Shown: positions 1 through 55,946, counted from the first letter of the stretch. The stretch: DNA of 64,000 nt from Leucoraja ocellata (GCA_036785375.1 JAWMAR010000070.1:3968001-4032000), one strand, 5' to 3'. A program made the numbers and translations. Notes: a model not told the origin generated them from the sequence alone.

Positions 1-250
1 GTGTCGTGTGAGTCTGTCCGTGGATCCCTTCCCATCCGTTACACATGGTTTGAGAAGAACGAGCATTGGGTTTCAACTACCGTGTATGGCAATCAACTGG
101 ATCTGAGTTGTGAAATCCTCGCCGGCCAACACCGTCAATATTACTGCACAGCCTCAAATAATCATGGGACAAAATCCAGTGAAAGTCTCAACGTGAAAGT
201 CTTCAAAGGAGCAGGAACGTGCAGTTATGTGACAGAAATCAACAATGCAG
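1..250 (+). CDS. Gene A, first C2-type Ig exon (5' end outside window)
   Basis: VSCESVRGSLPIRYTW...YYCTASN; donor GCAG|gtgagt at 250/251; paralog of 18633-18953. Confidence 0.88.
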
Positions 251-1468: not shown

Positions 1469-1786
1469 TTTCAGGTGCACTGCGGGCAGAGAGCGAAGTA
1501 CACGGGGTTGTGGGAAGAGCGATCACAATCGATTGTCACTATGCAGCAGTGTACCGCTCACACACAAAATACTGGTGCAACGGGACAAGTCGCCAGTGTA
1601 CACATGCAGTGGAAACAAATGGGGAACATGGACAGAGTGGAAGAGTGTCAATGTCAGATAACCCGGCACGAGGAATATTTACTGTGACTGTGGAGGATCT
1701 TAACTCTGGAGATACAGGATGGTACAGCTGTGGAATTACTACACCTGGCGAACCAACATTTAAAGTATATCTCCAAGTATCTGAAG
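1469..1786 (+). CDS. Gene A, V4 exon (CD300/pIgR-like V-set Ig domain)
   Basis: ttcag|TTTCAG acceptor, GAAG|gtaggt donor, phase 1-1; IDCHY..KYWCNGTSRQC..DTGWYSCG. Confidence 0.9.
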
Positions 1787-2508
1787 GTAGGTTTCTCAAT
1801 GGGTGACTTTATGTCTCCACCTTGGCAACGGACAAAATATTTGTTAGGTGGGAGTCTGGTGCACAGTTCTGGTCGCCGCTTTATAAAACAAAAGATGTGG
1901 AAGGTTTGTAGAGTTTACAGAAACATGTTCACCCGGATATTTAGTAATAGTTTACAAATGTAACATGGAAACGGATCCTTCGGCCCACCGAGTCCTCACC
2001 ACCTAGCGATCACCGGTCACACTAGTTCTATGTTGTTCCACTTCCCCATTCGCTCCCTACACACAATTCTACAATACCGCCATTCACACACCTCATTAGT
2101 GCAACATTATCACTATCAACTATTCTGTGCAAGGAAATTAAAAAGTTGTTGATGGTGATACTGTTGCACTAATGATGTGTTTGAATGTCCAGATTAAAAG
2201 CAGAGGCTCAGATTAAAAGAATATTAACTGCAGATGCTGGAATTGTAAAACAAAGAGATATGGTGCTGCTGTGTACTGGTACAGTGGCAGACATGGTAGT
2301 TCTGGCGACTGGGAGGATGGAGAGACACAGAGATGTCTAAATCTGGTAAATGGATTGTGAGGAGAAGGAGCGCAGAGATGACTTACAAGGATGTTGCGAT
2401 GACTTGAGGGCCTGGTATACAGGGAGGGGTTGAGCAGATTAAGGCTTTATTCCTTGGAGCGCAGGAGGATGAGGGGTGATTTTATTGCAGGTAAAAAAAT
2501 CCTGCGAG

Positions 2509-3209
2509 TTTAAAATAAAATTGGACCCCAACACAGAATTGATTATTTTTGGAACAATGGAAGCCGGGTCTAAGGTGATTTCGTTCCAAAATTCTCTCCT
2601 TAACCATGGCTTGATAACAGCAAAAAAAAAACGTATACTCAAATTCTGGAAGAACGAACCCACCCCCACGCTTAAAATGTGGATTTCAAGCATGTCTGAA
2701 ATGTTACACCTCGAAGATATGAGATTCGGCCTTGCAGGTAAAGCAGACCAATTCCTAAAGATTTGGTCTCCTTTTATCGACTTATTCCAAGTACATGGTG
2801 CAACATAACCCTGGAAATTAACTGTTTCAGAACTGGGTGAGGGGTGTGGAAAGACATGAAGCAGGTATATCCCTTCTCCCTTTTATTCTTTTTCTGTTTT
2901 GTTTCCTTATTATTTTATTTTATTTTCTATTTTTTATTTCTATTTACTAATTTATGTATTTATTTTTCGGGGGGGGGGTTCACGTTTTTTTTGCGGCTTT
3001 ATATCTTTACGGGTTCTTTCTATCTATTCTTTCACGAACTATCAATATCACTACTTAACTTTCTCTCTCCTTCTCTTTTTGTTTCTGTTACTTTTCTATT
3101 AATAAATTAAAAACAAGAAGTTGCACACTAAATGTAATATGTAAAACACGGTTTATACTACTGTACATTGATTCAAATAAAAATATTTATTAAATTTTTT
3201 TTAAATCAC
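2509..3209 (+). mobile_element. 5'-truncated L1-clade LINE (ORF2 C-terminus + T-rich 3' UTR); paralog at 43106-45517 split by a CR1
   Basis: ..ITAKKKRILKFWKNEPTPTLKMWIS..LHLEDMRF..FLKIWSPF resembles fish L1 ORF2 ends; AATAAA; imperfect flanking repeat aaaaatc(ct/ac)gcgag; absent in B and D. Confidence 0.65.
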
Positions 3210-4102
3210 AAAAATCACGCGAGGAATAGATCGAGTAAATACACAGTCTTTTGCCCAGAGTAGGGGAATAGGGAACCAGAGGACATAGTTTTCATATCAG
3301 GGGGAATGATTTAACAGGAACCTGGCGAGTAACGTGTTTACACAAAGGTTGGTAGGTCCATGAAACGAAATGCTGACGGAAGTAGTTATGGCAGGTACTA
3401 TCGTACCGTTTCAGAAAATATTGGACAGTTACATGAATAGGATATGTTTAGAGGGTTAGGGCCAAGAAAGGACAGGTGGAACTAGAGTACTTTGGGCGTG
3501 TTGGTCAGCGCGGGCAAGTTAGGCCGAGGTTTCTACTGTATGACTCTACGAATCTATGTAGATGGGATGGGTCCGACAGTTATATAAACAATGCTCCCTT
3601 TTTCCTGCTGGCAATTCCTGAAATGTAAAAGAGAATCGAAGATTGTCTGATGATATGTCCGCCCTGTGGTCAGTATTCATCACCATGTTATAGGAAAGAT
3701 GCTATCAAGTAAGATTGGGTGCAGAAAAGATTTACAATGATGCTGCCATGACTTGAGTGCCTGAACTCCAGGGAGGGATTGAGCAGACTAGGAATTTATT
3801 TCTGGGAGAGCAGGAGGATGAGGGATGATCTTACGGCAGCTACAAAATCACGCGACGAATAGATCGAGTAAATGCACAGTCTCTTCCGTTTGGAAGCTTA
3901 TGGGCTAAGCAAGGGCAGGTGGAACTAGTGTGGATGGACATGTGGCCTGCTTCTACACTATATGCCTCTATGACTCTAAGTAGATGGATGGGTCAGATTC
4001 CAACCTGGCGGCTCTGGCGAAGATACAGAGATGGTGGATATTGGCGAGTGTTTGATTTTCAGATGTTCACTCAGTGTCTGACTGTTTTCTCCTTTCCCAC
4101 AG

Positions 4103-4423
4103 AACCCGTGTCTGTTCCTGTGCTTGGGTGTCTGTCACCAGCCAATGTCTCTTGTCTCGGGGGCTCAGTGACAGTGTCCTGTGAGTCGGTCCGGGGATCC
4201 CTTCCCATTAACTACAGCTGGTATGAAAAGACCCCATCTGGGGATTCAAAGATCTCAGACAACAATGCCCTGGATCTACATTGTCAATCCTTCAAACACC
4301 AGCACCATCAATATTATTGCACAGTCTCAAATCAACATGGATCAAAATCCAGTGAAATGGTCAACGTGTCCATCTCCAGCAGTGACGTGTCCTGCAGTTT
4401 CCTGGTGAAAATCAACGGCACTG
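4103..4423 (+). CDS. Gene A, membrane-proximal C2-type Ig exon
   Basis: cccacag|AACCC acceptor, ACTG|gtaagt donor; VSCESVRGSLPINYSW..YYCTVSN. Confidence 0.9.
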
Positions 4424-5274
4424 GTAAGTAGTGGAGGGAATGGGGAGAAGAAGGGGAAGTGGGGGTGGGGTTGTTCATAAGATCACATGTGATAGAAGCA
4501 GAAATAGACCATTCAATCATGGCTGATGTATCTTCCCCTCCTCACCCCATTCTCCTGCCTTTTCCCCATAACCCCCGACACCCTGAAATCCATGCACGTT
4601 ATTTAATTACGTTATCAAGATTAAAATGATGGAATTATGGCCCATTTGTCAATACTTGGTTGCTGGGCTCCAGAAATAGATTTCCCAGCGCTGGTGTAGA
4701 CCAGCTTCCCGGCTAGAACTGCCTCTTATGTTTACACAGCTTTAAACTAGGTTTGCAGTGACATCAGTCCAAGCATTTTCACTTTCCATCATCTTCACAT
4801 GACCGACACTCAAATATGTGAAGGGATCAGAAATTATCAGTAAATGTGGCCACAGTTAACTCCTAGACGACGGTATCGCATTTGGGTCACTGTGTTAATG
4901 TTGTCCATTCAATACAATCAATACTCATCCCACTTACCAGCACCTCATCCATTGAGGCAATTCAGGTACCTCTATCTTCTCGGTTTAAAAATATTTATTT
5001 ATACCCTTCAAACATCCTGCTCCTTAACTTACCCATATGTTCTCCACTTTTACACATATCTGTCATGTAAAATGTTCCAAAAATACCCTGTCTATGCTGC
5101 TCATAGTTTTGTACACCTGTAATAGCCCCCCCCCCCTCCTCACCTGTTCTGCATGGAATTTTATAAAACCCCTATCCAACCCCTCCCCATCACTGTAATG
5201 TTTCATCCCAAGCAATACTCCTCTCAAATGAAATTGGACCCTTTTGATTAATTTGTGGATACATCGTGGAAGCA

Positions 5275-5525
5275 GGTTCTTCGTCCCACTGAGTACACAA
5301 CGTCCAGTAATCACCAGTACACTAGTTCCATGGGGACAATTTACAGAAGCCAATTAACCAACACACTTGCAAGAGTTCAGACTGTGGGGAAACTGGAGCA
5401 TTTGTAGAAACCCCACGCGGTCACAGGGAGGAGGTACAAATTCCGTGCAGACAGCATCCGTGGTCAGGATCGAACCCGTGCCTCTGGCTGTAAGGCAGCA
5501 ACTCTACCGCTGCGCCACCGTGCCA
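5275..5525 (-). mobile_element. tRNA-derived SINE (paralogs ~22835-23088, ~47560-47812)
   Basis: Minus strand reads GGCACGGTGGCGCAGCGGTAGAG (A box)..GGTTCGATCC (B box). Confidence 0.7.
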
Positions 5526-5720
5526 TCTACACCTGGAGCCAGAGTTGTTACCAGCACTCCTGCTTGTCATGATAACATCTCCCATTTGCTGCAAATCACA
5601 CAGAAGAAGCATTACCCTGTCTGTTAAGCCTATCAACTCCATTCATCGGAAAACCATAGCTACTTGTTAAACTGCAAGTGAAAAGCAGTGAAACTGACTT
5701 GTATTTCCTTGTTCAAACAG

Positions 5721-5769
5721 GTCTTGAATATTATTGTGAAAATTCGATACCATCCAATTACTCTGCAAG
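5721..5769 (+). CDS. Gene A, 49-nt stalk exon (GLEYYCENSIPSNYSA)
   Basis: Pyrimidine tract + aacag| acceptor, AAG|gtaaaa donor; phase 1 to 2 links the C exon to the TM exon in frame; same size in genes B and C. Confidence 0.7.
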
Positions 5770-7289
5770 GTAAAATGCTCTGTTTCCAATGAAAGTTACA
5801 ATGTACTAATTGCTGGTGTTTTGATTGGGGAATGCTTTAATTGGGAGAAAGTTGTGCCTTCCTTTCACTGGCATTAAATGCGTGAGAGTGTTGAGCCACA
5901 GTCTCACAACGCCACGACATTGGTTCATTAGGAGACCACTGTCTGTGCGTGGTCTGCTTGTTTTGCCTTTAATTGTGTTGGTTTCACTCAAGTGCTCCAG
6001 TTTCCTCCCAGCTCCCAAAGATGAGCCATTTGTAAATTGCCCCATGTGTACAGGAGAGTGGCTGAATCTGTGAAGAATGGGTGGGGTGGGGGTGGGGGTG
6101 GGGGTGGTAGTTGATGAGCAAGTGGGGGAAATGAAAATAGGATTGACACAGGAATCATGTGAATGCAGTTGGCGGAAACGGCCTGTTTCTATACTGTGTT
6201 TCTCTATGGGTCTTTGATCCAATGAACCTAAATGTCACGAAGCATAACCAATTGTTGTACAAGTTTCAAGCCTGACACCAAATATAAACGTATCTATTAA
6301 ATATTAGTTAATACAATAAATATAACTTACAAACCAGTTATTAGTTAACTCATCAGAGGGGGAATCGCACTGGTTTACATCTCATTGTGTTGTGCACATG
6401 CTTGGATGATAAGAACAAGTTCCTCCATTTGATGGTTTTCAGAGAGCGCTCCTTGCAGTATTCAACATTACTGCTCCATCACTCACCTCATCCGAATACA
6501 GCAAAATGAGTTAACTGACTCTCTCTTACTCGTTGATACTTGAAACCATTAAATATTCAATCATAATATAGTCATGAAAGTGGGAACATTTTGTTGTTTA
6601 TCTTATCACAATTGAAATAGATCTGACTTTCTATCACACTCTTGTGTTATACTTGCGTTAGCAAATGTTCATGAAAGCCACTCCGTTATGAGCGAACCTT
6701 TAACCGATTTTTCGAGCACAATTCCTCCATTCACACACCTACCGCGTTGATCCACGAAGTATCCAGGGTGTGAGATTAAGTATAATCATTTTTTAATTTA
6801 TTTTATTAATTGGCCTCATCTGTTTCCATTTTTATTGCCCATCTCCCTTCCATTATTGGAATTGATCCGTTTTTATTATTCCTATCCAAATGGATTTTAT
6901 TATAAACTTCCTTGCAGCTGCATTTTCTTTCTTCCAGGGTATCACACTGTTCTTTGTATCCTTCCACATCCACAGTTTCACTCTCCCGTGACTCTTGGTC
7001 TGAAGAAGGGTCTCGACCCGGAACTTCACGCATTCCTTCTCTCCGGAGAGATGCTGCCTCTCCCGCTGTGTTTCTCCAACATTTTGTGTCCATCGGTTTT
7101 GTATTCACTGCCCCAACTCATGACTTATTTATCTGTCTTCTCTGAATCCATTTAACCGCGTAGTCTCTCATTCCCAGTCTTGTAGCCATGCCCCAGCAAT
7201 GACGTCAACAATTGGTGATCATATGTTGCCCCCCCCCCCCCCCCCCCCCCCCGCCTCTCCCCAAGTCCAACACCCGTTCTTTTACAAAG

Positions 7290-7355
7290 ATGGTCTCCAC
7301 TGACGCTGCTGCTTCGCCGCGCTCCTCTTCACCAAGATTATGAAGCAAATAACAG
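7290..7355 (+). CDS. Gene A, candidate second stalk exon (66 nt, phase 2-2); acceptor uncertain
   Basis: Donor AACAG|gtaaat and open frame (..HQDYEANN) conserved at 25163-25228 and 49536-49601; following intron is only 68 nt. Confidence 0.35.
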
Positions 7356-7423
7356 GTAAATGCTTCAAAGATTAACCGTCTCGTTTCCTCCCATTGACTC
7401 CGTATTTCTTGCCCTTTGCCCAG

Positions 7424-7514
7424 TTACATCTCATGGGAAGTGGGGCGCTGGCTGTTCTTTCTCGTGCTTGTGATCTGGAGTATCTCAACCGCGATGTTCA
7501 CAAGAGGCTCTAAG
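7424..7514 (+). CDS. Gene A, transmembrane exon (YISWEVGRWLFFLVLVIWSISTAMFTRGSK)
   Basis: gcccag| acceptor, AAG|gtaggt donor; hydrophobic helix with Arg near its N-terminal end; 91 nt in A, B and C. Confidence 0.8.
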
Positions 7515-8159
7515 GTAGGTTGTATTGTCATCATGTTCATAAATTATAGGAGCAGAATTAGGCCGTTCAGCCCATCATATCTAATCGGCCCCCAATCACG
7601 GCTGACCTATCCTTCACTCGATCCCATTCACCTGCCTTCTCCCCGTAACCATTGACATCCTTATTTATCAAGAAAATGGAAATCTCCGCCTTAAAAATAT
7701 CAATTAATTTGGACAGATACAAAAATGCTGGAGTAGCTCAGCGGGACAGGCAGCATCTCCGGTGTGAATTAACTTGGCCTCCACAGCCTCCTGTGGCAAT
7801 GAAATCCATAGATTCACCAGAAGGGATTCGCCCAAAGCAATCCCTTCTCTTCGCCGAGTGTTTCCAAACGGTTTTCCATTAATGCTTTCATATATCCTGT
7901 CCATCGATAGAAACAAAAATCGTGCACGTTTTCATATCCTGAAGTTAAACCAAATCTCTATGTTGATGATATCACGAGGTTCTGTCAGGTTGTACGCGTG
8001 CAGGGTGGATTTCTGTGCCCGGTGTGGGTTCGTTGGCATTGGATTAAATAATTCGTGGGTTAGCATCTTGCAGACAGCAATGTGTTGAGAGTGGCCGGGA
8101 CAAATAAAGCGTGGTTCCCACTGTCAGTCTGTCTGATGACTTCACATTGTCTTTTGCAG

Positions 8160-8207
8160 AGACGCGATGACACAGAACCTCGCCACTCGACCCACGAATT
8201 ACAATGA
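8160..8207 (+). CDS. Gene A, terminal coding exon (RRDDTEPRHSTHELQ*)
   Basis: cttttgcag| phase-0 acceptor, TGA stop, two AATAAA ~200 bp downstream; coding sequence identical in B and C. Confidence 0.65.
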   Translation, partial: RRDDTEPRHSTHELQ

Positions 8208-8404
8208 AGACTCCTAGCTTGCACCATCTTAATTTTTGTCACCTCTTCCAAGGTTTCTTTCGTCAGCTTCGAACTATTGTTTTAACCTTTGCGTGGTTTC
8301 TGCTGCTTCAGAGTTTTATCCTCTGTTAAACTATATTATATGCACACAATTTCCTGGATTTTTTTTCACAGATTAATGAATAATAATGCAACAGAATGCT
8401 TCTT

Positions 8405-12647: not shown

Positions 12648-12684
12648 ATGTGGATTCCCATTCTTCTCATCTCCTCGCTGCCGG
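12648..12684 (+). CDS. Gene B, leader exon (MWIPILLISSLP)
   Basis: ACAATG start, hydrophobic peptide, CCGG|gtgagt phase-1 donor; next exon completes the signal peptide (VSGA). Confidence 0.8.
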
Positions 12685-15600
12685 GTGAGTGAAAGTCAGA
12701 TCCTGATATTCCAATGATCAATGTTAGTTGGGGTCCCGTGCACCCTTTCTACGACACAGATGGTTAAGTGTGTGTAGACATGTAATGGGCGAGATGGAAC
12801 TCAGTGCATTGTGGTGATGGATTTGAAATCACATTTGAATATCTAGACAATGTTCGTAGTTTAACCACCGTTAACACGAGGTCTAATTGTATCCTGATGG
12901 TAGTTTATCGGCATAAAATAGCGAATGCATTTGGAGCAGATACTCCAAGACACCTGGACCGAAGGACAGAGGTTCCAACATCACCAGGAAGTTAATTCTA
13001 CACTAACAAAATGTGTTTACAACAGAGGTGGAAGTCAGGATTGTGGTCTCATTGTGTCAGTTCAAATATTCCCTGCATTTGTCCATCTCAACTCTGTCGC
13101 AAACCCAACAATTCCCCGGAGTCTGAGACTGAACCACTGTCCTCGCTCTATCCACCCACTCCCAACTCTCTCTCCATCCGCTCTCGGATCCGCGGCCCAG
13201 TCGTGCTGAAATCCAAGTTCAGTTTATTGTCACGTGTACCGAGGTACAGAGAAAAGCTTTATGTTGCATGCTAACCTGCCAGATACATGATTACAATCGA
13301 TCATCTTACATACATGAATGGGAAATAAAGTTTAGTGTAAGGTAAGGCCAGCAAAGTCCGATCAAGGATAGTCCGAGGGTCACCAAAGAGGTAGATAGTT
13401 CAGCACTGCTCTCTGGTTATGGGAGGGTGATTCCGATGTCTGATAACAGCTGGGAAGAAACATTCCCCGAATCTGGCGGTGTGCGTTGTCACGCTACTAC
13501 GCTCTCCGTTAATGGACCCGCTTTATTGTAACTCGTCCTCTGTCCTCAGTCAGGGCGTTGGAAAGCATTGGCGGCGGTGAATGTCTAAACACGGGTCGGC
13601 TCTCCGCGTCCGGGTGGGACTCGAGAAGGACCAGGCGCTGTCCACGGGCACCTGGGGGATTTCCGGGACATCTGGGCACCGCCTGTGGTTGAATGCACCC
13701 TTGACAAGTATTGTAACATCGTTGTATAGTAGTTTATTTAGTATATTTGTTTGTCTTGTATTATGGTGCTGGGTTCTTGTTTTATTGTAGTGTAAATATT
13801 ATTTTTATTAATTGAATAAATTATTTGATAATTTTAAAAAACACGGATCCGGCCCAGTGTCGGTTGAGAGATGAATGTTGGCAGCGTAGCCGGCGGCACC
13901 GCCAATTAAATAGCAAAGTGGGGTCTTTCTGTGAGGTGAGAGGCCGGGCACCGCCTGGGATTGTTGAAAGGCAGCTCCTGCAACACTGCCGCGCTCCCTC
14001 AGTACCGCACTGCGATCCCAGCCCAGTGTCTGCTCAGGGATCTGGAGTGGGAAGTGAACCCAAATTGTACTGACCCGGGGACAGAACACTGACACAACTG
14101 GTACAGTAACAGCACTGCCTGCAATTCAGACCGGAGACATTGGCCGTGAAGCAATATGACACATCATGGAANNNNNNNNNNNNNNNNNNNNNNNNNNNNN
14201 NNNNNNNNNNNNNNNNNNNNNNNNNNNNNNNNNNNNNNNNNNNNNNNNNNNNNNNNNNNNNNNNNNNNNNNNNNNNNNNNNNNNNNNNNNNNNNNNNNNN
14301 NNNNNNNNNNNNNNNNNNNNNNNNNNNNNNNNNNNNNNNNNNNNNNGCATTTTATTTGCTGGCGCCTTTCTGGACACCCAAGGACACCTTACAGGACATA
14401 AAATCACAATACAATTATCAATATTAAAATCAAGTTGCCAAAAAACAAAAAACAAAAAAAAACACAAAATATTTTAACTCATTAAAATCAGGGTGAACAT
14501 GGTGGAAGTTATGTCGGGTATGCTAATCTAAACAGGTGTGTTTTGAGTTGTGATTTGAATTGATCGATAGTGTCCAGGTGACGGATGGGAGGTGGGAGAG
14601 TGTTCCAGAGACGTGGAGCAGAGCAGCCAAAGGCTCTGGCAACCATTGTGCTGAGTCTTAATGTGAGGACAGTTAAAATTGCAGCTGAGGAGGAACGAAG
14701 TGACCGGGAAGGAGTGTATGGTGGCAGCAGGTCAGAGAGGTATTGGGGAGCAAGGTGCGGTAGGGCTTTGAAGATCAGCATTAAATTCTTGTAGTTAATC
14801 CGGTGGTGCACAGGGAGCCAGTGGAGCTGAGTGAGGATGGGTGTGATGTGGTCCGATGATCTGGTGCGGGTGATGATCCGGGCTGCAGAGTTCTGAATGC
14901 ATTGGAGGCGATGAAGTCGTTTATATGAAGAAGTAATCTTCAAAATGTATCTATTTCCATTAAACAGTTCATTTTCTCTCCAGCTGAAAGTTTCTCCCCT
15001 CAGTTTCAGGTGCACTGTGGGCAAAGAGGAATGTAAGAGGAGTTGTGGGAAGAGCGATCACAATCGATTGTTACTATGCAGCAGAGTACCGCTCACACAC
15101 AAAATACTGGTGCCGTGGGAGGAGTCTCCAATGTACAGTGTTGGTGGAAACAAATGAGCAACACGGACGGAATGGAAGATTGTCAATCACAGATAACCCG
15201 GCACGAGGAATATTTACTGTGACTGTGGACGATCTTCAGGATGGAGATACAGGATGGTACAGATGTGGAATTACAACATCTGCCGTCCATCCAATATTTA
15301 ACGTTCATCTCGAAGTATCTGACGGTACGTTTCGCAGCGATTGATTGACGTCTCCAGCAGAAAGACAATACAGGATTACAATCGATTATCCTACAGTGCA
15401 TAGATACATGAAAATTAAATAACGTTTAGTGTAAGGTAAAGGCAGCAAAGTCCGATCAAGGGTGGTCCGAGGGTCGTCAAAGAGGTAGATGGGAGTTCAG
15501 GACAGATCTCTGGGCGTGGTAGGATGATTCAGATGCCTGATAACTGCTGTGAAGAAATTGTCACCGCCAATGAAATAGCAAAGTGGGGTCTTTCTGTGAG

Positions 15601-18600
15601 GTGAGAGGCCGGGCACCGCCTGGGATTGTTGAAAGGCAGCTCCTGCAACACTGCCGCGCTCCCTCAGTACCGCACTGCGATCCCAGCCCAGTTTCTGCTC
15701 AGGGATCTGGAGTGGGAAGTGAACCCAAATTGTACTGACCCGGGGACAGAACACTGACACAACTGGTACAATAACAGCACTGCCTGCACTTCAGACAGGA
15801 GACATTGGCCGTGAAGCAATATGACACATCATGGAACTATTTAAGTTTTCTTTCATGTAATCTTCAAAATGTATCTATTTCCACTAAACTGTTCATTTGC
15901 TCTCCATCTGAAAGTTTCTCCCCTTCAGTTTCAGGTGCAGTGTGGGGAGAGATGTATGTAAGAGGAGTTGTGGGAAGTGCGATTGCAATCGATTGTCACT
16001 ATGCAGCAGAGTACCGCTTACACACAAAATACTGGTGCCGTGTGCAGAATCGCCAATGTACAGATATGGTGGAAACAATTGGGCTACGCGGAAGGAGTGG
16101 AAGAATGTCAATCACAGATAACCGGGCACGAGGAATATTTACTGTGACTGTGGAGGATCTTCTCTCTGGCGATACAGGCTGGTACAGATGTGGAATTGCA
16201 ACATCTAACGGCCGCCCAATGTTTAGCGTAGAACTCGTTGTATCTGACGGTACGTCTCGCAGCGATTGACTTGTCGTCTCCACTGACTCGCCACTTCCCG
16301 CCATTCTGAAAAGGACCCGTTCACTCCTACTCTTTGCTTCCTGTCTGCCAACCAATTTCCTATCCACGTCAACACCCTTCCATGCGCTCTCAATTTAGTC
16401 ACCAGTCTGCCGTGCGAAACCTTATCAAAGGATTTCTTGAAGTCTAGACGACATTCACTGGCTCACCTTCGTCCATTTTACTTGCCACCTCCTCAAAAAA
16501 TTCCAGAAGATTAGTCAGGCATGACTTTCCTTTCATAAATCCATGCTGACTTGGACTAATTATTTTACTGGTATCCAAATGCCCCATTATTACCTCTTTA
16601 ATAATTGACTCCGGCATCTTTCCCGACACCGAAGTCAGGCTAACTGGTCTGTAATTTCCCGTTTTCTCTCTTGCTCCTTTCTTGAAAAGTGGGATTTAAC
16701 TTCACTTTCACTTCACTTTTCACTCAGCGCATTTCCCTTCCTCTGATCTGTATGAAATGTCACCCGTCAGAAGTTTGCATTCAGACTCAAACTAATAATC
16801 CCACAGTGAGAAACAAGTGTTGCTCGCGGCCTGAATACCCGGAAAGTTAAAAAAAATATCAGTCCTCCCGGTGCAGTTCATACCGCTTCCCGCTCCCACC
16901 TCAGCGATCAGTCATTCCCTCCCCATCCCGCGCTCTCGCTCTCTCTCTCCCTCTGCCCTGTCAATGGGCCCCCAACCCCAACAGCCACTGTCCACCCACC
17001 GCCCGGCAGCCAGCCAGCCTCTCCACCCGGACATTTCCCCGGTGGTAAGCAGAATAAACTCATCTTTCACCCCATCAGCCGTCGCACACAACATATAATC
17101 CTCCAACATTTTCGCCACCTCCAACGGGATCCCATAACCAGATAACTAGCCACACCTTTCCATCTCCACCGCTTTACGAAGACACCGTTCCCTCCGTAAC
17201 TCCCTGGTCAACTGGTCCATCTGAAAGTTTCTCCCCTCACTTTCAGATGCAGTGTGGGCTGAGACGGATGTAAGAGGAGTTGTGGGAAGAGCGATCACAA
17301 TCGATTGTCACTATGCAGCAGCGTACAGCTCATACACAAAATACTGGTGTCGTGGGAGGAATCACCCGTGTACAGTTTTAGTGGAAGCAAATGGGCAACA
17401 CGTACGTAGTGGAAGAGTATCAATCACAGATATACCGGCACTAAGAATATTTGTTGTGACTGTGGAGGATCTTCACTCTGGAGATACAGGATGGTACAGC
17501 TGTGGAATTACAACATCTGGCGACCGTCCAATATTTAACGTACTTCTCCAAGTATCTGACGGTACGTTTCGCAGCGATTGACTTGACGTCTCCACTGAAA
17601 TACCTAATCTATGTTCTCTCCGGGAAGGGTCAGTGCAGCACCGATATCCCGAGGCTCCGCAGCAGTGCAGAGACCTGCGGGGAACGGGCGGGGGTCGGGA
17701 AACCCCACTCATGTTGCTCTCACCCAGTGCGGGCTCTGTTCCACTGAGCGGCCACCCACGTCAAGTGGGATGCTCAGCACATTTCCCTGCGTCTGAACTG
17801 TATGAAATGTCACCATGTCAGAGGTTTGTATTCCGACTCAAACTAATAATCCGACAGACTCCGCAACTCCCTGGTCAACTCGTCCTTTCCCACCCCGTCC
17901 CCAGATACCTTCCCCTACAACTGCAGGATATGCAACACCAGTCCCTATATATCTCCCCCTTTACTCCGTCCAAGGCTCCAACAGTATTTCCGGGTGAGTC
18001 AGAGGTTCACTTGCATCTCTTCTAACCTCATCTACTATATCCGCTGTTCCAGGTGTGAACAAGCGGATACAGTAGATGGGAGACCCAACGCAGGCTCGGC
18101 GATCGCTGAACAATTCCGCACAGTGTTCCTCGGCCTACGCTACATCACGATTGCAAAACACCTTCATTCCCCCTCCCATTCCCAAACTGATCTTTCTGTC
18201 CCGGACCTCCACCCCTGCATCCCAACATATGTTCTGAGGGACAACATTTTCCACACATTGGGTGATATGTATATGGAACCTGCTGCCAGGGGAATGTGTT
18301 AAGGCAGTTAGAATAGCAGCATTTAAAATATTTTTTTGATATTTGCGTAGATTGGGATCATTGCGAGTGATAAAGGTAGAACGTGAACATATGGAAATGG
18401 CCTAGAAAGACATGTTGGTCGGCATGAATGAGCTGTTGTGATGGGCATTTTCGGTTCTCTATAACACTAACCTTCTTCGGTTTTTGGGCTTCGCACACTC
18501 ACAGAGATGTAGATGAGCCGGTGAGATATCAACCGGACGGTTCGGGCTGAGATAAAGGGCTGCTGAGATTTAGCACGTGTTTGGTTTTTAACTGTTCATA

Positions 18601-21600
18601 CAGGTGACTGAATGTTTGCTCCATTCCCACAGAACCCATGTCTGCTCCTGTGCTCAGATATCTGTCACCAGCAAATGCCTCACGTCTCGGAGGCTCAGTG
18701 TCAGTGTCGTGTGAGTCTGTCCGTGGATCCCTTCCCATCCATTACACATGGTTTGAGAAGAACGAGGATGGGTGTTCAACGACCTTGTCTGGCAATCAAC
18801 TGGATCTGAGTTGTGAAATCCTCGAAGGTCAACACCGTCAATATTACTGCAGAGCCTCAAATAATCGTGGGACAAAATCCAGTGAAATACTCAACGTGAA
18901 AGTCTTCAAAGGAGCAGGAACGTGCAGTTATGTGACAGAAATGAACAATGCAGGTGAGTGTTCTTCTCGTGTCCCTGAACCTGCTGCTATTCATTCACCT
19001 TGTGGTGATGTTCATGGATTTTTTGTTATTTGCAGACGGCATCATTGCAGCCTCCGGGAGCTCATGGTGTAAAATGCGAGTTTGTTTGGGGGACTGGTAA
19101 ATGATTGCCTGTTGCTTTCACCTGGGAGGTGTTGAGAAATGTCAGCAAATGAGAGAAATACCTGCGGGTTGAGTGCATTCCATCAACATTATTTTCTGGC
19201 TGCCGCACTTTGAGACGGAGAAAGAAACCAAATTCATTCTGTTTGGATCCATCATCAGTTATAACCAAGGATGTAAAATTTCATGATCATGTTCATGATT
19301 TTAACTCTGTTAATTTGTGTTAAACTCCAGTAATCTCACAAAATGAAATTGGAATCTACTTGGCCGTCACTCCATCAAGTATAACCCTTACTTTTGTCAA
19401 AGATAATTTTGAAAAAAACTTCCCTGTAGGTGTGGAGACGCTCATATTGGAAGTCCAGAAGAGGGTGTGAATGGTTTACATCAGCGAGACCAATTTTATA
19501 CAAGGCCAGTTCTTAATAAACTATTACAGTGTCATTCGCCCTTGAGTCTTTATTACAAGATTTAATTCACCCTCCACTATATGTTCTTATGTTCTTTTGG
19601 TTATTATCATCTTATTTTTCCTTGTGCATAATTTTTATAGATAATTGATTTTGTCGCATGAGCAAAAAACATAAATTAACTAATTTACGCCAAAATAATT
19701 TCATTCGCCTTGGGTGAACCATTCATCAGTTTAAGAAGCACTGGCCTAGGCTACAATTTCGCCGAACACTTATGTTTGGTTTGTCATGGCCCAGAATCGC
19801 GCATGATAGACACCCCATCCTCAACCTCGTCCGCTAATGCAGAGCAGCAGCAGTTTGCACCATCTGCACGATGCACTGCAGTAACTCACCAAGACTCCCT
19901 AGACAGCGCCTTCCAATTGCAAGAGGCTCCGTGTTCAATGCATCATTCTTCACCATTCACACCCACATTGGCTGGGAAGCGCTTTGGAACGACCTGTGCA
20001 GGTGGTGAGGGCCGGTGTACAGTATCTGTCTCTCATCGCAATCTAGGTGGAATTCAACACAGCTAAGAAAATGAGTCGGCGGACTCCCTTGTATACTAGA
20101 ATGTGTATGTTTGTGAAAGGCTAATTTTGCTCTTCAATTTATGAAAGTTGTTTCCTTCAGTTTCAGGTGCACTGTGGGCAGAGAGCGAAGTGCGAGGGGT
20201 TGTGGGAAGAGCGATCTCAATCGATTGTCACTATGCAGCAGCGTACCGCTCACACACAAAATACTGGTGCCGTGAGACAAGTCGCCAGTGTCCACATGTA
20301 GTGGAAACAAATGGGAAACATGGACAGAGCGGAAGAGTGTCAATCACAGTTAACCCGGCACGAGGAATATTTACTGTGACTGTGGAGGATCTTCACTCTG
20401 GAGATACAGGATGGTACAGATGTGGAATTACTACACCTGGCGAACCAACATTTAAAGTATATCTCCAAGTATCTGAAGGTAGGTTTCTCAGTGAGTGACT
20501 TGATGTCTCCACTTTGGCAACGGGCAAAACATGTGTTAGGTGGGAGTCTGGTGCACAGTTCTGGTCGCCGCTTTATAAAACAAAGGATGTGAAAGGTTTG
20601 TAGAGTTTACAGAAACATGTTCACCCGGATATTTAGTAATAGTGTACAAATGTAACATTGAAACTGATCCTGTGGCCCACAGAGTCCTCACCAACTAGCG
20701 ATCACCGGTCACACTAGTTCTATGTTATTCCACTTCCCCATTCGCTCCCTGCACACAATTCTACAATACCGCCATTCACACACCTCATTAGTGCAACAGT
20801 ATCACTATCAACTATTTTATGCAAGGAAATTAAAAAGTTGTTGATAGTGATTCTGTTGCACTAATGAGGTGCATGACTGGCGGTATTTGAAGTGTTTGAA
20901 TGTTGATATTGTAGAATTGTGGCAGAGGTTTAGATTAAAACATATTAACGGCAGATGCTGGAATTGTAAAACAAAGAGAGATGGTGCTGCTGTGTCCTGG
21001 CACAGTGGCAGACATGGTAGTTCTGGCAGCTGGGAGGATGGAGAGGCACAGAGATAATTAAATCTGGTAAATCGTGTGGAGAATGAGCAGGGAAGACTTA
21101 CAAGGATGTTGCGATGACTTGAGGGCCTGGCATACAGGGAGGGGTTGAGCAGATTGGGGCTTTATTTCTTGGAGCGCAGCAGGATGTGGGTTGATCTGAT
21201 GGCAGGTAAAACATTATGCGAGGAATAGATCGAGTAAATACACAGAGTCTTTTACTCAGAGTAGGGGAATCCAGAACCGGAGGACATATGTTTAATATGA
21301 GGGGGGAATGATTTAACAAGAACCTAGGGAGTAATGTTTTTACATAAAGGTTGGTAGGTACATGACATGAACTGCCGACAGAAGTAGTTGTGGCAGGTAC
21401 TATCGTAACATTTAAGAAAATATTGGACAGTTATATGAATATGATATGTTTAGAGGATTAAGGGCCAAGAAAGGGCAGGTGGAACTAGTGCAAATTGGGC
21501 GTGTTGGTCAGCGCGGGCAAGTTAGACCGAAGGGCCTGTTTCTACGCTGCATGACTCTATGACTCTATGTAGATGGATGGGTTAGATTCCAACTTGGCGT

Positions 21601-24600
21601 CTCTGGCTAAGATACAGAGATGGCGGATATTGGCGATTTTCAGATGTTCACTCAGTGTCTGACTGTTTGCTCCTTTCCCACAGAACCCGTGTCTGTTCCT
21701 GTGCTTGGATTTCTGTCACCAGCCGATGTCTCCTGTCTCGGGGGCTCAGTGACAGTGTCCTGTGAGTCGGTCCGGGGATCGCTTCCCATTAGCTACACCT
21801 GGTATGAAAATACCCCATCTGGGGATTCAAAGATCTCAGACAACAATGCCCTGGATCTACATTGTCAATCCTTCAAACACCAGCACCATCAATATTCTTG
21901 CACAGCCTCAAATAATAATGGATCCAAATCCAGTGAAATGGTCAACGTGTCCATCTCCAGCAGTGACGTTCCCTGTAGTTTCCTAGTGAAAATCAACGGC
22001 ACTGGTAAGTAGTGGAGGGAATGAGGAGAAGAAGGGGAAAGTGGGGGCGGGGTGTTTCATAAGATCACGTGATAGAAGCAGAAATAGACCATTCACTCAT
22101 GGCTGATCTATCTCCCCCTCTTCACCCCATTCTCCTGCCTTTGCCACATAACCCCCGACGCCCTGAAATCCATGCACGTTATTTAAATGAAGGAATTATG
22201 GCCCATTTGTCAATACTTGTTTGCTGGGCTCCAGACATAGATTTCCCAGTGCTGGTGTAGACCAGCTTCTCGGCTAGAACTTCCTCTTATGTTTACACTG
22301 CTTTAAACTGGGTTTGCAGTGACATCAGCCCAAGCACTTTCACTTTCCCACCATCATCGCCACATGACCGACACTCAAATATGGGAAGGGAACAGAAACT
22401 AGCAGTAAATGTGGCCACAGTTAACTCGTGGACGACGGTATCAGATTTGGTCCACTGTGTTAATGTTGACCATTCAGTACCATCGATACAATCCCATTTA
22501 CCAGCACCTCGTCCATTGTGACAATTCAGGCACCTCAATTTTCTGCGTTTAAAAATATGTCTTGAGACCCTTGAAGCATCCTGCTCCTGAACCTAACCAT
22601 ATGTTCTCCACATTTACACATGTCTGCCGTGCAAATTTTTCTAAAAATACAATCTTTGCAGCTCACAGTTTTGCACACCTGTAATAGGTCCCCCATTCCT
22701 CACCTGTTCTGCATGGACTTTTATAAAGCCCCTTCCAACCCCTCCCCATAACTGTAATGTTTCATCCCAAGCAATATTCCTCTCAAGTGAAATTGCACTC
22801 TTTAGATTACATTATGGATACAGGTTTGAAACAGGCTCATCGGCCCACTGAGTGCACACAGCCCAGTATTCACCAATAGACTAGTTCCATAGGGACAATT
22901 TACAGAAGCCAATTAACCTACAAACCTGCACGACTTTGGAACGCTGGGGGAAACTGGAGTACTTGAAGAAACCCACGCGATCACAGGTAGGAGGGCCAAA
23001 TTCGGTATAGACAGCATCCGTAGTCAGGATCAAACCTGGGTCTCTGGCCCTGGAAGGCAGCAACTCCACCGCTGCGGCACCGTGCCGTCTACAGAGCCAA
23101 CGTGGTTAAAAGCATTCCTGCTTATCATGACAACATCTCCCATCTGCTGCAAATCGGAAAATCATACCTCCTTGCTCAACTGCAAGTGAAAAGCAGTGAA
23201 ACTGGATTTTATTTCCTTGTTCCAACAGGTCATGAATATTCTTGTGAAAATTCGATAACATCCAATTACTCTGCAAGGTAAACCGCTCTGTTTCCAATGA
23301 AAATTGCATGTACTAATTGCTGGTGTTTTGATTGGGAATGCTTTAATTGGGGGGAAGTTGTGCCTTCCTTTCACTGGCATTAAATGCGTGAGAGTGAGAA
23401 TGCATGATCTGAATGCACAGTGGCAAAGCCTATAGAAACACAGTCTCGCAACGCCACGACATAGGTTTAATGGGTGTTGTCTGTGTGTGATATGCATGTT
23501 TTGCCTTTAATTGTGTAGGTTTCATTCAGTTTCCTCCCAGCTCCCAAAGATGTGCCAGTTGTAAATTGTCCCATGTGTACAGGAGAGTGGCTGAATCTGT
23601 GAAGAATGGGTGGGGTGGGGGAGGGGGCAGGGGGTGGGTGGGGGTGGGGTGTGGTAGTTGATGAGAAAGTGGGGGAAATAAAAATAGGATTGACACAGGA
23701 ATCATGTGAATGCAGTTGACGGAAATAGCCTGTTTCTATACTGTGTTTCTCTATGGGTCTTTGATCCAATGAACCTAAATGTCACGAAGCACAATTGTTG
23801 TACAAGTTTCAAGCCTGACACCAAATATAAACGTATCTATTAAATATTATTTAATACAATAAATATAACTTGCAAACCAGTTATTAGTTAACTCATCAGA
23901 AGGGGAATCGCACTGGTTTACATCTCATTGTGTTGTGTACATGCTTGGATGATAAGAACAAGTTCCTCCATTTGATGCTTTTCAGAGAGCGCTCCCTGCA
24001 GTATTCAACATGACTGCTCCATCACTCACCTCATCCCATGCTGTGAGATTAATATAGTTCCCAAACCTTAGTCTTCCAGTTTAGCTTTGCTGTGAATTCC
24101 TCTTGTGTGGTGCTGATAGGAAAATGCTTTATGAATGATGGGCTACGCCACACTCCCCATGATATCACTTGTGGCAACACCTTGTCATTGATGGGGCCAT
24201 ACACCAGAAAGTCGCTGGCGCAGAATGTCAGAAAATTGTCTTGAATCAGACCGAATACAGCAAAATGAGTTAACTGACTCTCTCTTACTCGTTGATAATT
24301 GAAATCATTAAACATTCAATCATAATATATTCATGAAAATGAGAACACTTTGTTATTTATCTTAATACAATTGAAATATATCTGACTTTCTATCACACTC
24401 TTGTGTTATACTTGCGTTAGCAAATGTTCATGAAAGCCACGCCGTTATGAGCGAATCTTTAACCGATTTTTCGAACACAATTCCTCCATCCACACACCTA
24501 CCGCGTTGATCCACGAAGTATCCAGGGCGTGACATTAAGCACAATCATTTTAAATTTTATTTTATTAATTGGCCTCATCTGTTTCCATTTTTGTTGCCCA

Positions 24601-27600
24601 TCTCCCTTCCATTATTGGAATTGATCCGTTTTTATTATTCCTATCCCAATGGATTTTATTATAAACTTCCTTGCAGCTGCATTTTATTTCTTCCAGGGTA
24701 TCACACTGTTCTTTGTATCCTTCCACATCCACAGTTTCCCTCTCCCGTGACTCTCAGTCTGAAGAAGGGTCTCGACCCGGAACTTCGCGCATTCGTTCTC
24801 TCCAGAGAGATGCTGCCACTCCCGCTGTTTCTCCAACATTTTGTGTCCATCTGTTTTGTATTCACTGCCCCAACTCATTGTATTCCACTGCCCCGACTCA
24901 TGACTTATTTAGTCTGAAGAAGGGTTTCGGCCCGAAACGTTGCCTATTTCCTTCGCTCCATAGATGCTGCTGCACCCGCTGAGTTTCTCCAGCTTTTTTG
25001 TGTAATCTCGTGATTTATTTATATGTCTTGTCTGAATCCATTTAACCGCGTAGTCTCTCATTCCCAGTCTTGTAGCCATGCCCCAGCAATGACGTCAACA
25101 ATTGGTGATCATATGTTGTCCCCCCCGCCTCCCCACAGTCCAACACCCGTTCTTTTACAAAGATGGTCTCCACTGACGCTGCCGCTTCGCCCCGCTCCAC
25201 TTCACCAAGATTACGAAGCAAATAACAGGTAAATGATGCAAAGATTAACCGTCTCGTTTCCTCCCATTGACTCTGTATTTCTTGACCTTTGCCCAGTTAC
25301 ATCTCATGGAAAGTGGGGCGCTGGATGTTCTTTCTCCTGCTTGTGATCTGGAGTATCTCAACCGCGGTGTTCGCAAGAGGCTCAAAGGTAGGGTTTACTG
25401 TCATCATGTTCATAAATTATAGGAGCAGAATTAGGCCATAGAAACATAGAAAATAGGTGCAGGAGTAGGCCATTCGGACCTTCGAGTCTGCACCGCCATT
25501 CAATATGATCATGGCTGATCATCCAACTCAGTATCCTGTACCTGCCTTCTCTCCATACCCCCTGATCCCTTTAGCCACAAGGGCCACATCTAACTCCCTC
25601 TTAAATATAGCCAATGAACTGGCCTCAACTACCTTCTGCGGCAGAGAATTCCAGAGATTCACCACTCTCTGTGTGAAAAAGGTTTTCCTCATCTCAGTCA
25701 TACAAGATTTCCCCCTTACCTTTAAACTGTGACCCCTTGTTCTGGACTTCCCCAACATCGGGAACAATCTTCCTGCATCTAGCCTATCCAACCGCTTAAG
25801 AATTTTGTAAGTTTCTATAAGATCCCCCCTCAAACTTCTAAATTCTAGCGAGTACAAACCGAGTCTATCCAGTCTTTCTTCATATGAAAGCCCTGACATC
25901 CCAGGAATCAGTCTGGTGAACCTTCTCTGTACTCCCTCTATGGCAAGAATGTCTTTCCTCAGATTAGGAAACCAAAACTGTACGCAATACTCCAGGTGTG
26001 GTCTCACCAAGACCCTATACAACTGCAGTAGAACCTCCCTGCTCCTATACTCAAATCCTTTTGCTATGAATGCTAACATACCATTCGCCTTCTTCACTGC
26101 CTGCTGCGCCTGCCTGCTTACTTTTAATGACTGGTGTACCATGACACCCAGGTCTCGTTCCATCTCTCCCTTTCCTAATCGGCCACCATTCAGATATAAG
26201 TCTACTTTCCTGTTTTTGCCACCAAAGTGGATAACCTCACATTTATCCACATTATACTGCATCTGCCATGCATTTGCCCACTCACCGAGCCTATCCAAGT
26301 CACCTTGCAGCCTCCTAGCATCCTCCTCACAGCTAACACTGCTCCCCAGCTTCGTGTCATCCGCAAACTTGGAGATGTTGCATTCAATCCGCTCGTCCAA
26401 ATCAATAATATATATCGTAAATAGCTGGGGTCCCATCACTGAGCCTTGCGGCACCCCACTAGTCACTGCCTGCCATTGTGAAAAGGACCCGTTTACTCCT
26501 ACTCTTCCTGTCTGCCAGCCAGTTCTCTATCCACATCAACTAACACATCTAATCATAGACTAACTGGTCTGTAATACCCCGTTTTCTCTCTCCCTCCCTT
26601 TTTAAAAAGTGGGGTTACATTAGCTACCCTCCAATCCTCAGGAACTACTCCAGAATCTAAAGGGTTTGAAAAATTATCACTAATGCATCCACTATTTCTG
26701 GGGCTACTTCCTTAAGTACTCTGAGGTGCAGCCTATCTGGCCCTGGGGATTTATCGGGCTTTAATCCATTCAATTTACCTAACACCACTTCCCGGCTATC
26801 CTGGATTTCACTCAGTTCCTCCATCTCATTTGACCCCCGGTCCCCGGCTATTTCCGGCAAATTATTTATGTCTTCCTTAGTGAAGACAGAACCAAAGTAG
26901 TTATTCAATTGGTCTGCCATGTCCTTCTTCCCCATGATCAATTCACCTGTTTCTGACTGCAAGGGACCTACTTTTGATTTAACGATTCTTTTTCTCTTCA
27001 CATATCTATAAAAGCTTTTGCAGTCAGTTTTTATGTTCCCTGCCAGTTTTCTTTCATAATCTATTTTTCCCTTTCCTAATTAAGCCGTTTGTCCTCCTCT
27101 GCTGGTCTCTGAATTTCTCCCAGTCCTCTGGTAGGCTGCATTTTCTGGCTAATTTGTACGCTTCATCTTTTGTTTTGATACGATCCCTGATTTCCCTTGT
27201 TATCCACGGATGCACTACCTTCCCTGATTTATTTTTTTGCCAAACTGAGATGAACAATTGTTGTAGTTCATCCATGCAGTCTTTAAATGCCTTCCATTGC
27301 ATATCCACCGTCAACCCATTAAGAATCAATTGCCAGTCTATCTTGGCCAATTCACGTCTCGTACCCTCAAAGTTACCTTTCTTTAAGTTCAGGACCCTTG
27401 TTTCTGGATTAACAATGCCACTTTCCATCCTAATGAAGAACCCAACCATATTATGGTCACTCTTGCCCAAGGGGCCACGCACAACAAGATTTCTAACTAA
27501 CCCTTCCTCATTACTCAATACCCAGTCTAGAATAGCCTGCTCTCCCGTTGGTTCCTCTACATGTTGGTTTATAAAACTATCCCGCATACATTCCAAGAAA

Positions 27601-28262
27601 TCCTCTCCCTCCATTCAGCTCATCATATCTAATCGGCCCCCAATCACGGCTGATCTATCCTTCTCACTCGATCCCATTCACATGCCTTCTCCCCATAACC
27701 ATTGACATCCTTATTTATCAAGAAAATGAAAATCTCCGCCTTAAAAATATCAATTAATTTGGACAGATACAAAAATGCTGGGGTAGCTCAGCGGGCCAGG
27801 CAGCATCTCCGGTGTGAATTAACTTTGCCTCCACAGCCTCCTGTGGCAATGAAATCCATAGATTTACCAGAAGGGATTCGCACAAAGCAATCCCTTCTCT
27901 TCGCCGAATGTGTCCAAACGGTTTCCATTAATGCTTTCATATATCCTGTCCATCGATAGAAACAGAAATCGTGCACGTTTTCATATCCTGAAGTTAAACC
28001 AAATCTCTATGTAAATGATATCACGAGGTTTTGTCACGTTGTACGCGTGCAGGGTGGATTTCTGTACCCGGTGTGGGTTCGTTGGCAGTGGATTAGCTAA
28101 TTCGTGGATTAGCATCTTGCAGGCAGCAATGTGTTGGGAGCGGTCGGGTTAAATAAAGCGTGGTTCCCACTGTCAGAGAGTCTTCACATTTGACTTCACA
28201 TTTGTCTTTTGCAGAGACGCGATGACACAGAACCTCGCCACTCGACCCACGAATTACAATGA
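12648..28262 (+). CDS. Gene B (spliced): complete six-Ig-domain CD300/pIgR-like (MDIR-type) membrane receptor L-V-V-V-C-V-C-stalk-TM-tail, ~713 aa if all listed exons are joined
   Basis: Ten phase-compatible exons sum to 2142 nt, open from ATG 12648 to TGA 28262. Confidence 0.8.
14172..14346. other. Assembly gap (175 N)
   Basis: Run of n; paralogs hold an (AAT)n microsatellite here. Confidence 0.98.
14172..14930 (-). mobile_element. L2-clade LINE 3' fragment with (TAT)n tail (paralogs 32645-33281, 55868-56530)
   Basis: LQCIQNSAARIIT..HITPILTQLHWLPV..SAPRLWNTLP..FKSQLKTHLF; absent from the duplicated segment upstream of V2. Confidence 0.8.
15004..15324 (+). CDS. Gene B, V1 exon
   Basis: cctcag| acceptor, GACG|gtacgt donor; IDCYY..KYWCRGRSLQC..DTGWYRCG. 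Confidence 0.88.
15929..16249 (+). CDS. Gene B, V2 exon
   Basis: cttcag| acceptor, GACG|gtacgt donor; KYWCRVQNRQC..DTGWYRCG. Confidence 0.88.
16285..16697 (-). mobile_element. Old CR1 RT fragment in V2-V3 intron (paralogs ~33927-34341, ~57882-58298)
   Basis: SQHGFMKGKSCLTNLLEFFEE; YLDFKKSFDKVPH in the paralogs. Confidence 0.85.
17247..17561 (+). CDS. Gene B, V3 exon (second acceptor; upstream AG is AC in this copy)
   Basis: cctcactttcag|ATGCA; GACG|gtacgt; KYWCRGRNHPC..DTGWYSCG. Confidence 0.85.
17860..18217 (+). mobile_element. Penelope-like element fragment (degenerate GIY-YIG endonuclease); longer paralog ~59500-60260
   Basis: QRFTCISSNLIYYIRCSRC resembles the start of a PLE GIY-YIG domain. 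Confidence 0.6.
18633..18953 (+). CDS. Gene B, first C2-type Ig exon
   Basis: cccacag| acceptor, GCAG|gtgagt donor; CESVRGSLPIHYTW..YYCRASN. Confidence 0.9.
20161..20478 (+). CDS. Gene B, V4 exon
   Basis: ccttcag| acceptor, GAAG|gtaggt donor; KYWCRETSRQC. Confidence 0.9.
21684..22004 (+). CDS. Gene B, membrane-proximal C2-type Ig exon
   Basis: cccacag| acceptor, ACTG|gtaagt donor; CESVRGSLPISYTW..YSCTASN. Confidence 0.9.
23229..23277 (+). CDS. Gene B, stalk exon (GHEYSCENSITSNYSA)
   Basis: ccaacag| acceptor, AAG|gtaaac donor; 49 nt as in paralogs. Confidence 0.7.
25297..25387 (+). CDS. Gene B, transmembrane exon (YISWKVGRWMFFLLLVIWSISTAVFARGSK)
   Basis: gcccag| acceptor, AAG|gtaggg donor; hydrophobic helix. 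Confidence 0.8.
25437..27611 (-). mobile_element. 5'-truncated, internally deleted CR1 LINE in the last intron of gene B
   Basis: RT SGVPQGS/FADD; catagaaa tail; absent in A (7560) and C (49810). Confidence 0.92.
28215..28262 (+). CDS. Gene B, terminal coding exon
   Basis: ttttgcag|AGACGC..TGA; same peptide as gene A. Confidence 0.65.
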   Translation, partial: RRDDTEPRHSTHELQ

Positions 28263-31098: not shown

Positions 31099-31135
31099 AT
31101 GTGGATTCCCATTCTTCTCATCGCCTCGCTACCCG
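31099..31135 (+). CDS. Gene C, leader exon (MWIPILLIASLP)
   Basis: CCCG|gtgagt phase-1 donor. Confidence 0.8.
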
Positions 31136-32644
31136 GTGAGTGAAAGTCAGATCTTGATAATCCAATGATCAATGTTAGTTGGGGTCCTGTGCACCCTTTC
31201 CACAGCAGAGATGGTTAAGTGTGTGTAGACATGTAATGGGGGAAATGGAACTCAGTGCATTGTGGTGATGGATCTGAAATCACATTTGAATATCTAAACA
31301 ATGTTCGTAGTTTAACCACCGTTAACACGTGGTCTAATTGCATCCTGATGGTAGTTTATCGGCATAAAATAGCGAATGTATTTGGAGCAGATACTCCAAG
31401 ACACCTGGACCGAAGGACAGAGGTTCCAACATCACCAGGAAGTTAATTCTACACTAACAAAATGTGTTTACAACAGAGGTGGAAGTCAGGATTGTGGTCT
31501 CATTGTGTGAGTTCAAATATTCCCTGCATTTGTCCATCTCAACTCTGTCGTAAACCCAACAATTCCCCGGAGTCTTAGACTGAACCACTGTCCTCGCTCT
31601 ATCCACCCACCGCCAACTATCTCTCCATCCGCTATCGGTGCCGCCGCCCAGTCGTGCTGAAATTCAAGTTCAGTTTATTGTCGCGTGTACCGAGGTACAG
31701 AGAAAAGCTTTTTGTTGCATGCTAACCTGCCAGATACATGATTACAGTCGATCCCCTTACAGCGCATAGATACATGAATGGGAAATAACGTTTAGTGTAA
31801 GGTAAGGCCAGCAAAGTCCGATCAAGGGTAGTCCGAGGGTCACCAAAGAGGTAGATAGTTCAGCACTGCTCTCTGGTTATGGGAGGATGATTCGGATGTC
31901 TGATAACAGCTGGGAGGAAACTTTCCCCGAATCTGGCGGTGTGCGTTTTCACGCCAACAACGCTCTCCGGTAATGGACCCGCTTTATTGTATCTCGTCCG
32001 TCCTCTGTCCACAGTCAGGGCGTTGGAAAGCATTGGCGGCGGTGAATGTCTAAACACGGGTCGGCTTTCCGCGTCCGGGTGGGACTCGAGAAGGACCAGG
32101 CGCTGTCCACAGGCACCTGGGGGATTTCCGGGACATCTGGGCACCGCCTGCGGTTGAATACATCCTTGACAAGCATTGTAACATAGTTGTATAGTAGTGT
32201 ATTTAGTATATTTGTTTGTCTTGTATTATGGTGCTGGGTTCTTGTTTTATTGTAGTGTAAATATTATTTTTAATAATTGAATAAATTATTTGATAATTTA
32301 AAAAAAACACGGGTCCGGTCCAGTGTCGGTTGAGAGATGAATGTTGGCAGCGTAGCCGGCGGCACCGCCAATAAAATAGCAAAGTGGGGTCTTTCTGTGA
32401 GGTGAGAGGCCGGGCACCGCCTGGGATTGTTGAAAGGCAGCTCCTGCAACACTGCCGCGCACCCTCAGTACCGCACTGCGATCCCAGCCCAGTTTCTGCT
32501 CAGGGATCTGGACCCAAATTGTACTGAACCGGGGACAGAACACTGACACAACTGGTACAATAACAGCACTGCCTGCACTTCAGAGCGGAGACATTGGCCG
32601 TGAAGCAATATGACACATCATGGGATGATTTAAGTTTTCTTTCA

Positions 32645-32723
<79 letters not shown>

Positions 32724-54313: not shown

Positions 54314-54350
54314 ATGTGGATTCCCATTCTTCTCATCTCCTTGCTGCCGG
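54314..54350 (+). CDS. Gene D, leader exon (MWIPILLISLLP); gene runs past the window end
   Basis: CCGG|gtgagt phase-1 donor. Confidence 0.8.

Positions 54351-55865: not shown

Positions 55866-55867
<2 letters not shown>

Positions 55868-55945
<78 letters not shown>
55868..55945. repeat. (AAT)n microsatellite (L2 tail)
   Basis: 26 perfect AAT units. Confidence 0.95.

Positions 55946-55946
<1 letters not shown>

Follow-up and report, generated by a model that had tools for sequence, protein, structure and literature searches.

Question raised by the locus

A 64,000 nt stretch of the Leucoraja ocellata genome (hereafter the window) contains a receptor gene in which one leader exon is followed by four V exons, all of which begin with much the same short segment. 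The original prediction was that this segment allows the leader to be spliced to any V exon, giving a combinatorial choice of N-terminal domain, with exon duplication named as a fallback. We therefore asked whether the motif reflects choice by splicing or the ancestry of the exons. We consider it most probable (about 0.8) that it is a relic of duplication which makes the V exons plug-compatible for germline shuffling, in a receptor that is MDIR5-like.

Gene structure and family membership

The whole gene model forms one 713-aa frame with the layout V-V-V-C-V-C, an Arg in the membrane segment and a short tail. Its exons are given below, the three small 3′ exons having been placed by fitting to MDIR5.

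12648..12684, plus strand: leader exon, coding part; 12 codons plus 1 nt, ending S-L-P + G, phase 1 donor GTGAGT
15004..15324, plus strand: V1 exon, CD300/pIgR-type V domain; 321 nt, tandem acceptor with the second AG 6 nt in
15929..16249, plus strand: V2 exon; 321 nt, the V type that is the first domain in five paralogues
17247..17561, plus strand: V3 exon; 315 nt, first acceptor (17241) mutated from AG to AC, second in-frame AG remaining
18633..18953, plus strand: C1 exon, C2-type Ig; 321 nt, 91/105 identical to MDIR5
20161..20478, plus strand: V4 exon; 318 nt, old internal V lineage common to skates and rays, 95/105 identical to MDIR3
21684..22004, plus strand: C2 exon, C2-type Ig; 321 nt, 90/105 identical to MDIR5
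23229..23277, plus strand: short juxtamembrane exon; phase 1-2, fitted to MDIR5
25139..25228, plus strand: candidate optional stalk exon; open over 90 nt, phase 2-2, no counterpart in MDIR5
25297..25387, plus strand: transmembrane (TM) exon with Arg (activating type); 27/30 identical to MDIR5
28215..28262, plus strand: short cytoplasmic exon; contains the stop, no ITIM

The predicted leader end (12684, phase 1, SLP+G) and Ig exon coordinates were all right on the sequence, and the six Ig exons (315-321 nt) are indeed all phase 1-1 with AG..GT borders. The candidate stalk exon lies 68 nt 5′ of the TM exon, is found in most Arg-type genes and could be optional. All 64 include/skip combinations of the six Ig exons stay open in frame, 58 of them starting with a leader-to-V joint, and the predicted figure of up to 2^6 combinations is thus correct. 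This is a point in favour of a regulated splice repertoire. However, Ig domains across the superfamily are generally encoded by single symmetric exons (PMC8274849), and therefore the same count would be true of any such six-domain gene and is no evidence of choice. Moreover, the introns are ordinary GT-AG introns of 605-2314 nt, which counts against dedicated regulation.

By its sequence, the gene is an activating-type, MDIR5-like member of the known MDIR family. Its Ig domains are 69-90% identical to those of skate MDIR3 and MDIR5 (79-87% for the C exons), 51 of its last 60 aa are identical to MDIR5, and MDIR5 begins with the same leader peptide. A Pfam V-set domain was found in all four V exons, whose best PDB matches are the V domains of pIgR and CD300 from the mammalian CD300/pIgR family. 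A homologue search returned 104 proteins, and all the named ones were from sharks and rays, including skate MDIR2, MDIR3 and MDIR5; those nearest to this gene were skate proteins. The surrounding cluster (G000:C70:3.86-4.65 Mb) was also analysed. It contains 39 leader exons and 36 tandem genes with both a leader and a TM exon. Of these genes, 26 are of the Arg type while the other 10 have tyrosine-motif tails, and several broken genes are counted in. The features of the family are therefore present: CD300/pIgR-like V domains, activating and inhibitory members in a multigene family, and modular arrays of V and C2-type domains of varying number, the last being a feature derived from the MDIR2, MDIR3 and MDIR5 sequences themselves.

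MDIR5 and MDIR3 (modular domain immune-type receptors of the clearnose skate; UniRef P0039 and P0014) are built from the same leader, V and C2 modules as this gene and likewise carry the motif at internal V starts. MDIR5 also shares the Arg-bearing TM segment and short tail, whereas MDIR3 has a tyrosine-motif tail and the tail of this gene is short and without an ITIM. The number of tandem N-terminal V exons differs, with three here, one in MDIR5 and two in MDIR3. MDIR3 and MDIR5 are known as sequences, which we take to be cDNA-derived; here the genomic array of MDIR genes is mapped. In paired-receptor families an Arg in the TM segment together with a short tail goes with adaptor-coupled activation, and by analogy this receptor likely signals through an activating adaptor. 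CD300 has paired activating and inhibitory forms, as in the MDIR cluster, but one V domain, and pIgR has five V domains without C2 modules. PMC3031540 describes MDIRs as multigenic activating/inhibitory receptors resembling CD300, TREM, FCAR and pIgR, and gives the family name, citing Cannon et al. 2006 (PMID 16738934). In the literature that we searched, mostly outside subscription papers, MDIR in the skate sense was named in PMC3031540 only.

The motif at the start of the V exons

The V exons start with (V)S[GD]A[LV]W[AG] throughout, the form being (V)SGALWA in V1 and V4, (V)SGAVWG in V2 and (VS)DAVWA in V3. This whole segment had been proposed to complete the signal peptide. However, in alignment with mature pIgR chains, residue 6 of V1 pairs with their residue 6, and an AlphaFold model of MDIR3 (mean pLDDT 68) shows LWA/VWA as a beta-strand in each of the three V domains (21-23, 127-129 and 340-342). 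Therefore V-S-G-A, some four residues, is at most what can complete the signal, given the cleavage site that we infer, and the claim does not extend to LWA/VWA, predicted to be strand A of the mature domain. At internal positions V-S-G-A is predicted to form an inter-domain linker. In MDIR3 and MDIR5 the chain runs on through the motif, as a linker, at both V-V and C-V joints; the MDIR3 model shows VSGA at the V-V joint as coil of low confidence and the C-V start as partly strand, with a pLDDT of ~60. Family-wide, S is kept in 118, G in 123 and A in 121 of 130 domains labelled internal, these labels being noisy and by position only.

The V exons also carry a tandem 3′ splice site, with two AGs 6 nt apart (e.g. 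15004-15009); the second AG is found in 115 of 116 V exons. In V3 of this gene the first AG is replaced by AC at 17239-17240, so that splicing would fall to the second AG, 6 nt downstream, and V3 would begin without V-S. Loss of the first acceptor is seen in 7/71 internal and 1/35 first V exons, a difference that is not significant (Fisher p 0.09-0.27) and in which events are not independent. Annotated isoforms in Hemitrygon, Mobula and Rhinoraja, which are RefSeq models, differ by exactly the two tandem-acceptor residues, and shark models likewise start at G-A-L.

Retention of the motif relative to descent

We then compared retention of the motif with that expected from descent, using intact exons only for the dS, V-start and tree analyses (93/116 V exons in the survey of V starts). 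The V types differ by a dS of only 0.09-0.25, at which each pair should have gained 0.5-1.5 neutral amino-acid changes in S-G-A, and neutral retention of the motif is therefore expected. One fixed S-G-A change is found between V types, G to D, in 18/18 V3 exons. The introns upstream of V1 and V2 still match at ~68/75 nt. On a DNA tree there are 7 changes in S-G-A among 64 intact internal V exons, a median rate (49/90 windows equal or lower), and 2 among 25 first V exons (38/90 windows equal or lower). The Ala codon has no changes in the 64 internal V exons, and the same is true of 25/92 codons. Moreover, leaderless V4 relics keep both acceptor and motif in 6/6 cases, 3 of them truncated, though as close kin of each other they are a weak control. 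Within the cluster, there is no motif retention beyond descent. Low dS, the median internal rate and the relics all favour the fallback of the original prediction, a relic of exon duplication, and the lack of excess S-G-A conservation counts against selection for cleavable isoforms.

Across species the result is less uniform. The V4 clade (FastTree support 0.93) unites 109 domains of skates, sawfish and myliobatiform rays, and no member of it is labelled first; automatic labels had left 125 domains unclassified, and these were then read by eye from their flanks. After 10 shifted starts and 3 orphans were set aside, SGA identity between skates and other rays was 91%, compared with 61% elsewhere, and its rate was 0.53 of the mean, with 22/103 windows equal or lower. 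Weak constraint on SGA in the V4 lineage is therefore possible. A second in-frame acceptor together with a linker role would explain such constraint without any leader skipping.

This gives the next rival to a duplication relic, which we regard as improbable: that weak purifying selection acts on the V start for a reason other than the signal, namely as a second in-frame 3′ splice site (TTTCAG/G) and linker. The near-universal second AG is consistent with it, as are its being the sole acceptor left where the first is mutated, e.g. in V3 here, and the isoforms and shark models that differ at these two residues. However, the isoforms are models, every joint in MDIR3 and MDIR5 is made at the first acceptor, and the zero changes at that third codon position are not significant against a mean of 1.22 per third position.

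Splicing and the case for a regulated repertoire

In relatives, we compared annotated isoforms or near-identical models in 11 sets. A whole Ig domain is clearly dropped in two of them: a Mobula model skips the first V (leader-to-C) and a Rhinoraja model skips a C (V-to-V). Two more pairs are doubtful and may be different genes, and three sets differ by the two tandem-acceptor residues. A leader-to-internal-V joint was found in 0 of the 11 sets.

RNA reads (X1, X6, X10 and X13) over 12300-28500 of the window were dominated by repeats, and none of the 15 joints listed, beyond which there were 3900 more, was exon-exon. On a repeat-poor paralogue (L069:60-3300), stranded low-depth reads (X10, X12, X22 and X18) fell on L, V and C exons in a related species, with an exon depth of up to ~7 in X10; no exon joint was found at a 3-read threshold, and one V-to-C joint had 2 reads. 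Counting short-read junctions, as had been suggested, would be misleading for V2, since the skipped L-V2 junction of this gene has 1 mismatch in 100 nt to a germline L-V2 paralogue junction. Across germline paralogues the mismatches are 1-5 per 100 nt for L-V2 and 5-11 for V3/V4.

Arrays of duplicated, frame-compatible exons are also found in Dscam1, the clustered protocadherins and sDscam, and in this MDIR resembles them. The MDIR genes differ from these systems in that there is no shared constant region and each gene has its own leader and TM exon. An arrangement of the protocadherin or sDscam type, with many cassettes joined to one constant region, was not found, as there is one leader per gene, and a shared constant region is ruled out by the 36/39 leaders that have their own TM exon. 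Nor, to judge from MDIR3, would there be one variable exon per transcript as in Dscam, since the MDIR3 chain, by its sequence, has two tandem V domains and an internal V translated together. Docking-selector RNA pairing, a feature of the Dscam type, did not stand out between the leader intron and the V exons, and the best real intron-exon duplexes are similar for V and C exons. One docking candidate, at 13286-13301, was rejected: it is weak, lies in a high-depth repeat bin and is not kept in the other two leader introns of the window, from which its 13-mer core is absent. The 16 nt site pairs at -15 to -16 kcal/mol, compared with -27 to -35 for the best shuffled windows (a crude control of 6 shuffles).

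In a regulated repertoire, any V exon could be selected as the splice partner of the leader and cassettes would be skipped combinatorially, with the motif selected for cleavable isoforms. Each V exon would then carry the end of the signal and the N-terminal ligand-binding domain would be chosen per cell, a Dscam-like repertoire without recombination on top of the ~36 genes. We think this very unlikely. The retained motif of the old V4 lineage and the whole-domain skips of the Mobula and Rhinoraja models could be read in its favour, as could diversification of the V types: by Nei-Gojobori on intact V and C exons of the cluster, dN/dS is 0.65-1.53 between V types and 0.63-1.06 within domain types, suggesting diversifying selection or relaxed constraint. 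However, the Mobula joint runs from the leader to a C exon, not to an internal V, and the sole intron site that pairs with all four V exons does so weakly and is not conserved. We see no sign of a dedicated choice mechanism. If true, regulated leader-to-V choice would add a new way for vertebrate innate receptors to diversify.

Germline diversity of the cluster

The demonstrated domain diversity lies in the germline, where layouts differ between neighbouring genes in the DNA itself. The 36 genes have 11 domain layouts, from no Ig to (V-C)x5, and three paralogues flank the gene within the window:

1..8245, plus strand: upstream paralogue, 3′ part; layout V-C-V-C-V-C
31099..46724, plus strand: next paralogue, without V1 in the DNA; leader-V2-V3-C1-V4-C2, so that V2 adjoins the leader
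54314..64000, plus strand: third paralogue; leader-V1-V2-V3-C1-V4-C2, cut by the window end

The leader-V2 arrangement is present in the DNA of five paralogues, one of them frameshifted. The claim that the leader could join any of the four V exons thus holds in frame logic and, for V2 at least, in DNA. That leader-V2 occurs as a germline layout might be taken to favour splicing to V2. However, the V1-less next gene and these five genes mean that much of the proposed splice diversity is already realised by germline exon gain and loss, and layouts supplied in this way count against a repertoire made by splicing.

The internal V exons likely keep their (V)SGA start because each is a duplicate of a complete first V exon with its acceptor, and the copies have diverged too little to lose it. 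Paralogues have gained and lost phase 1-1 exons, probably through unequal crossing-over, which gives the layouts seen. The kept V start likely lets exon deletions still yield a secreted receptor, and occasional in-frame skipping is probably a by-product.

Several further features of the cluster were observed. Three genes on the minus strand (G000:C70:3883363, 4227460 and 4308022) have leader, TM and tail exons and no Ig exon by blastn or tblastn; activating stubs and deletion relics are both candidate explanations. The six leaderless V4 exons (G000:C70:3887265, 4078617, 4231108, 4310596, 4379630 and 4407299; three truncated) sit between the tail of an inhibitory gene and the next leader. The paralogue at G000:C70:3936616-3943736 adjoins an N gap and has many small indels in every exon, which may reflect low-quality assembly rather than a pseudogene. 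Gene order is the same at G000:C70:3864920-3887265 and 4206332-4231108, ~342 kb apart, and the strand changes several times along the cluster, which suggests large segmental duplications and inversions. Within the window, intronic elements at 36718-39213, 43222-44820 and 25531-27614 contain endonuclease/reverse transcriptase frames, one of 832 aa, and presumably belong to a LINE-type family; in the second gene, such elements make the V3-C1 and V4-C2 introns longer.

Taken together, these data give a resolved genomic map of a known, little-studied paired-receptor family, with 36 genes, 11 layouts and fast-diverging V domains, and show that gain and loss at the level of exons builds receptor diversity in the germline.
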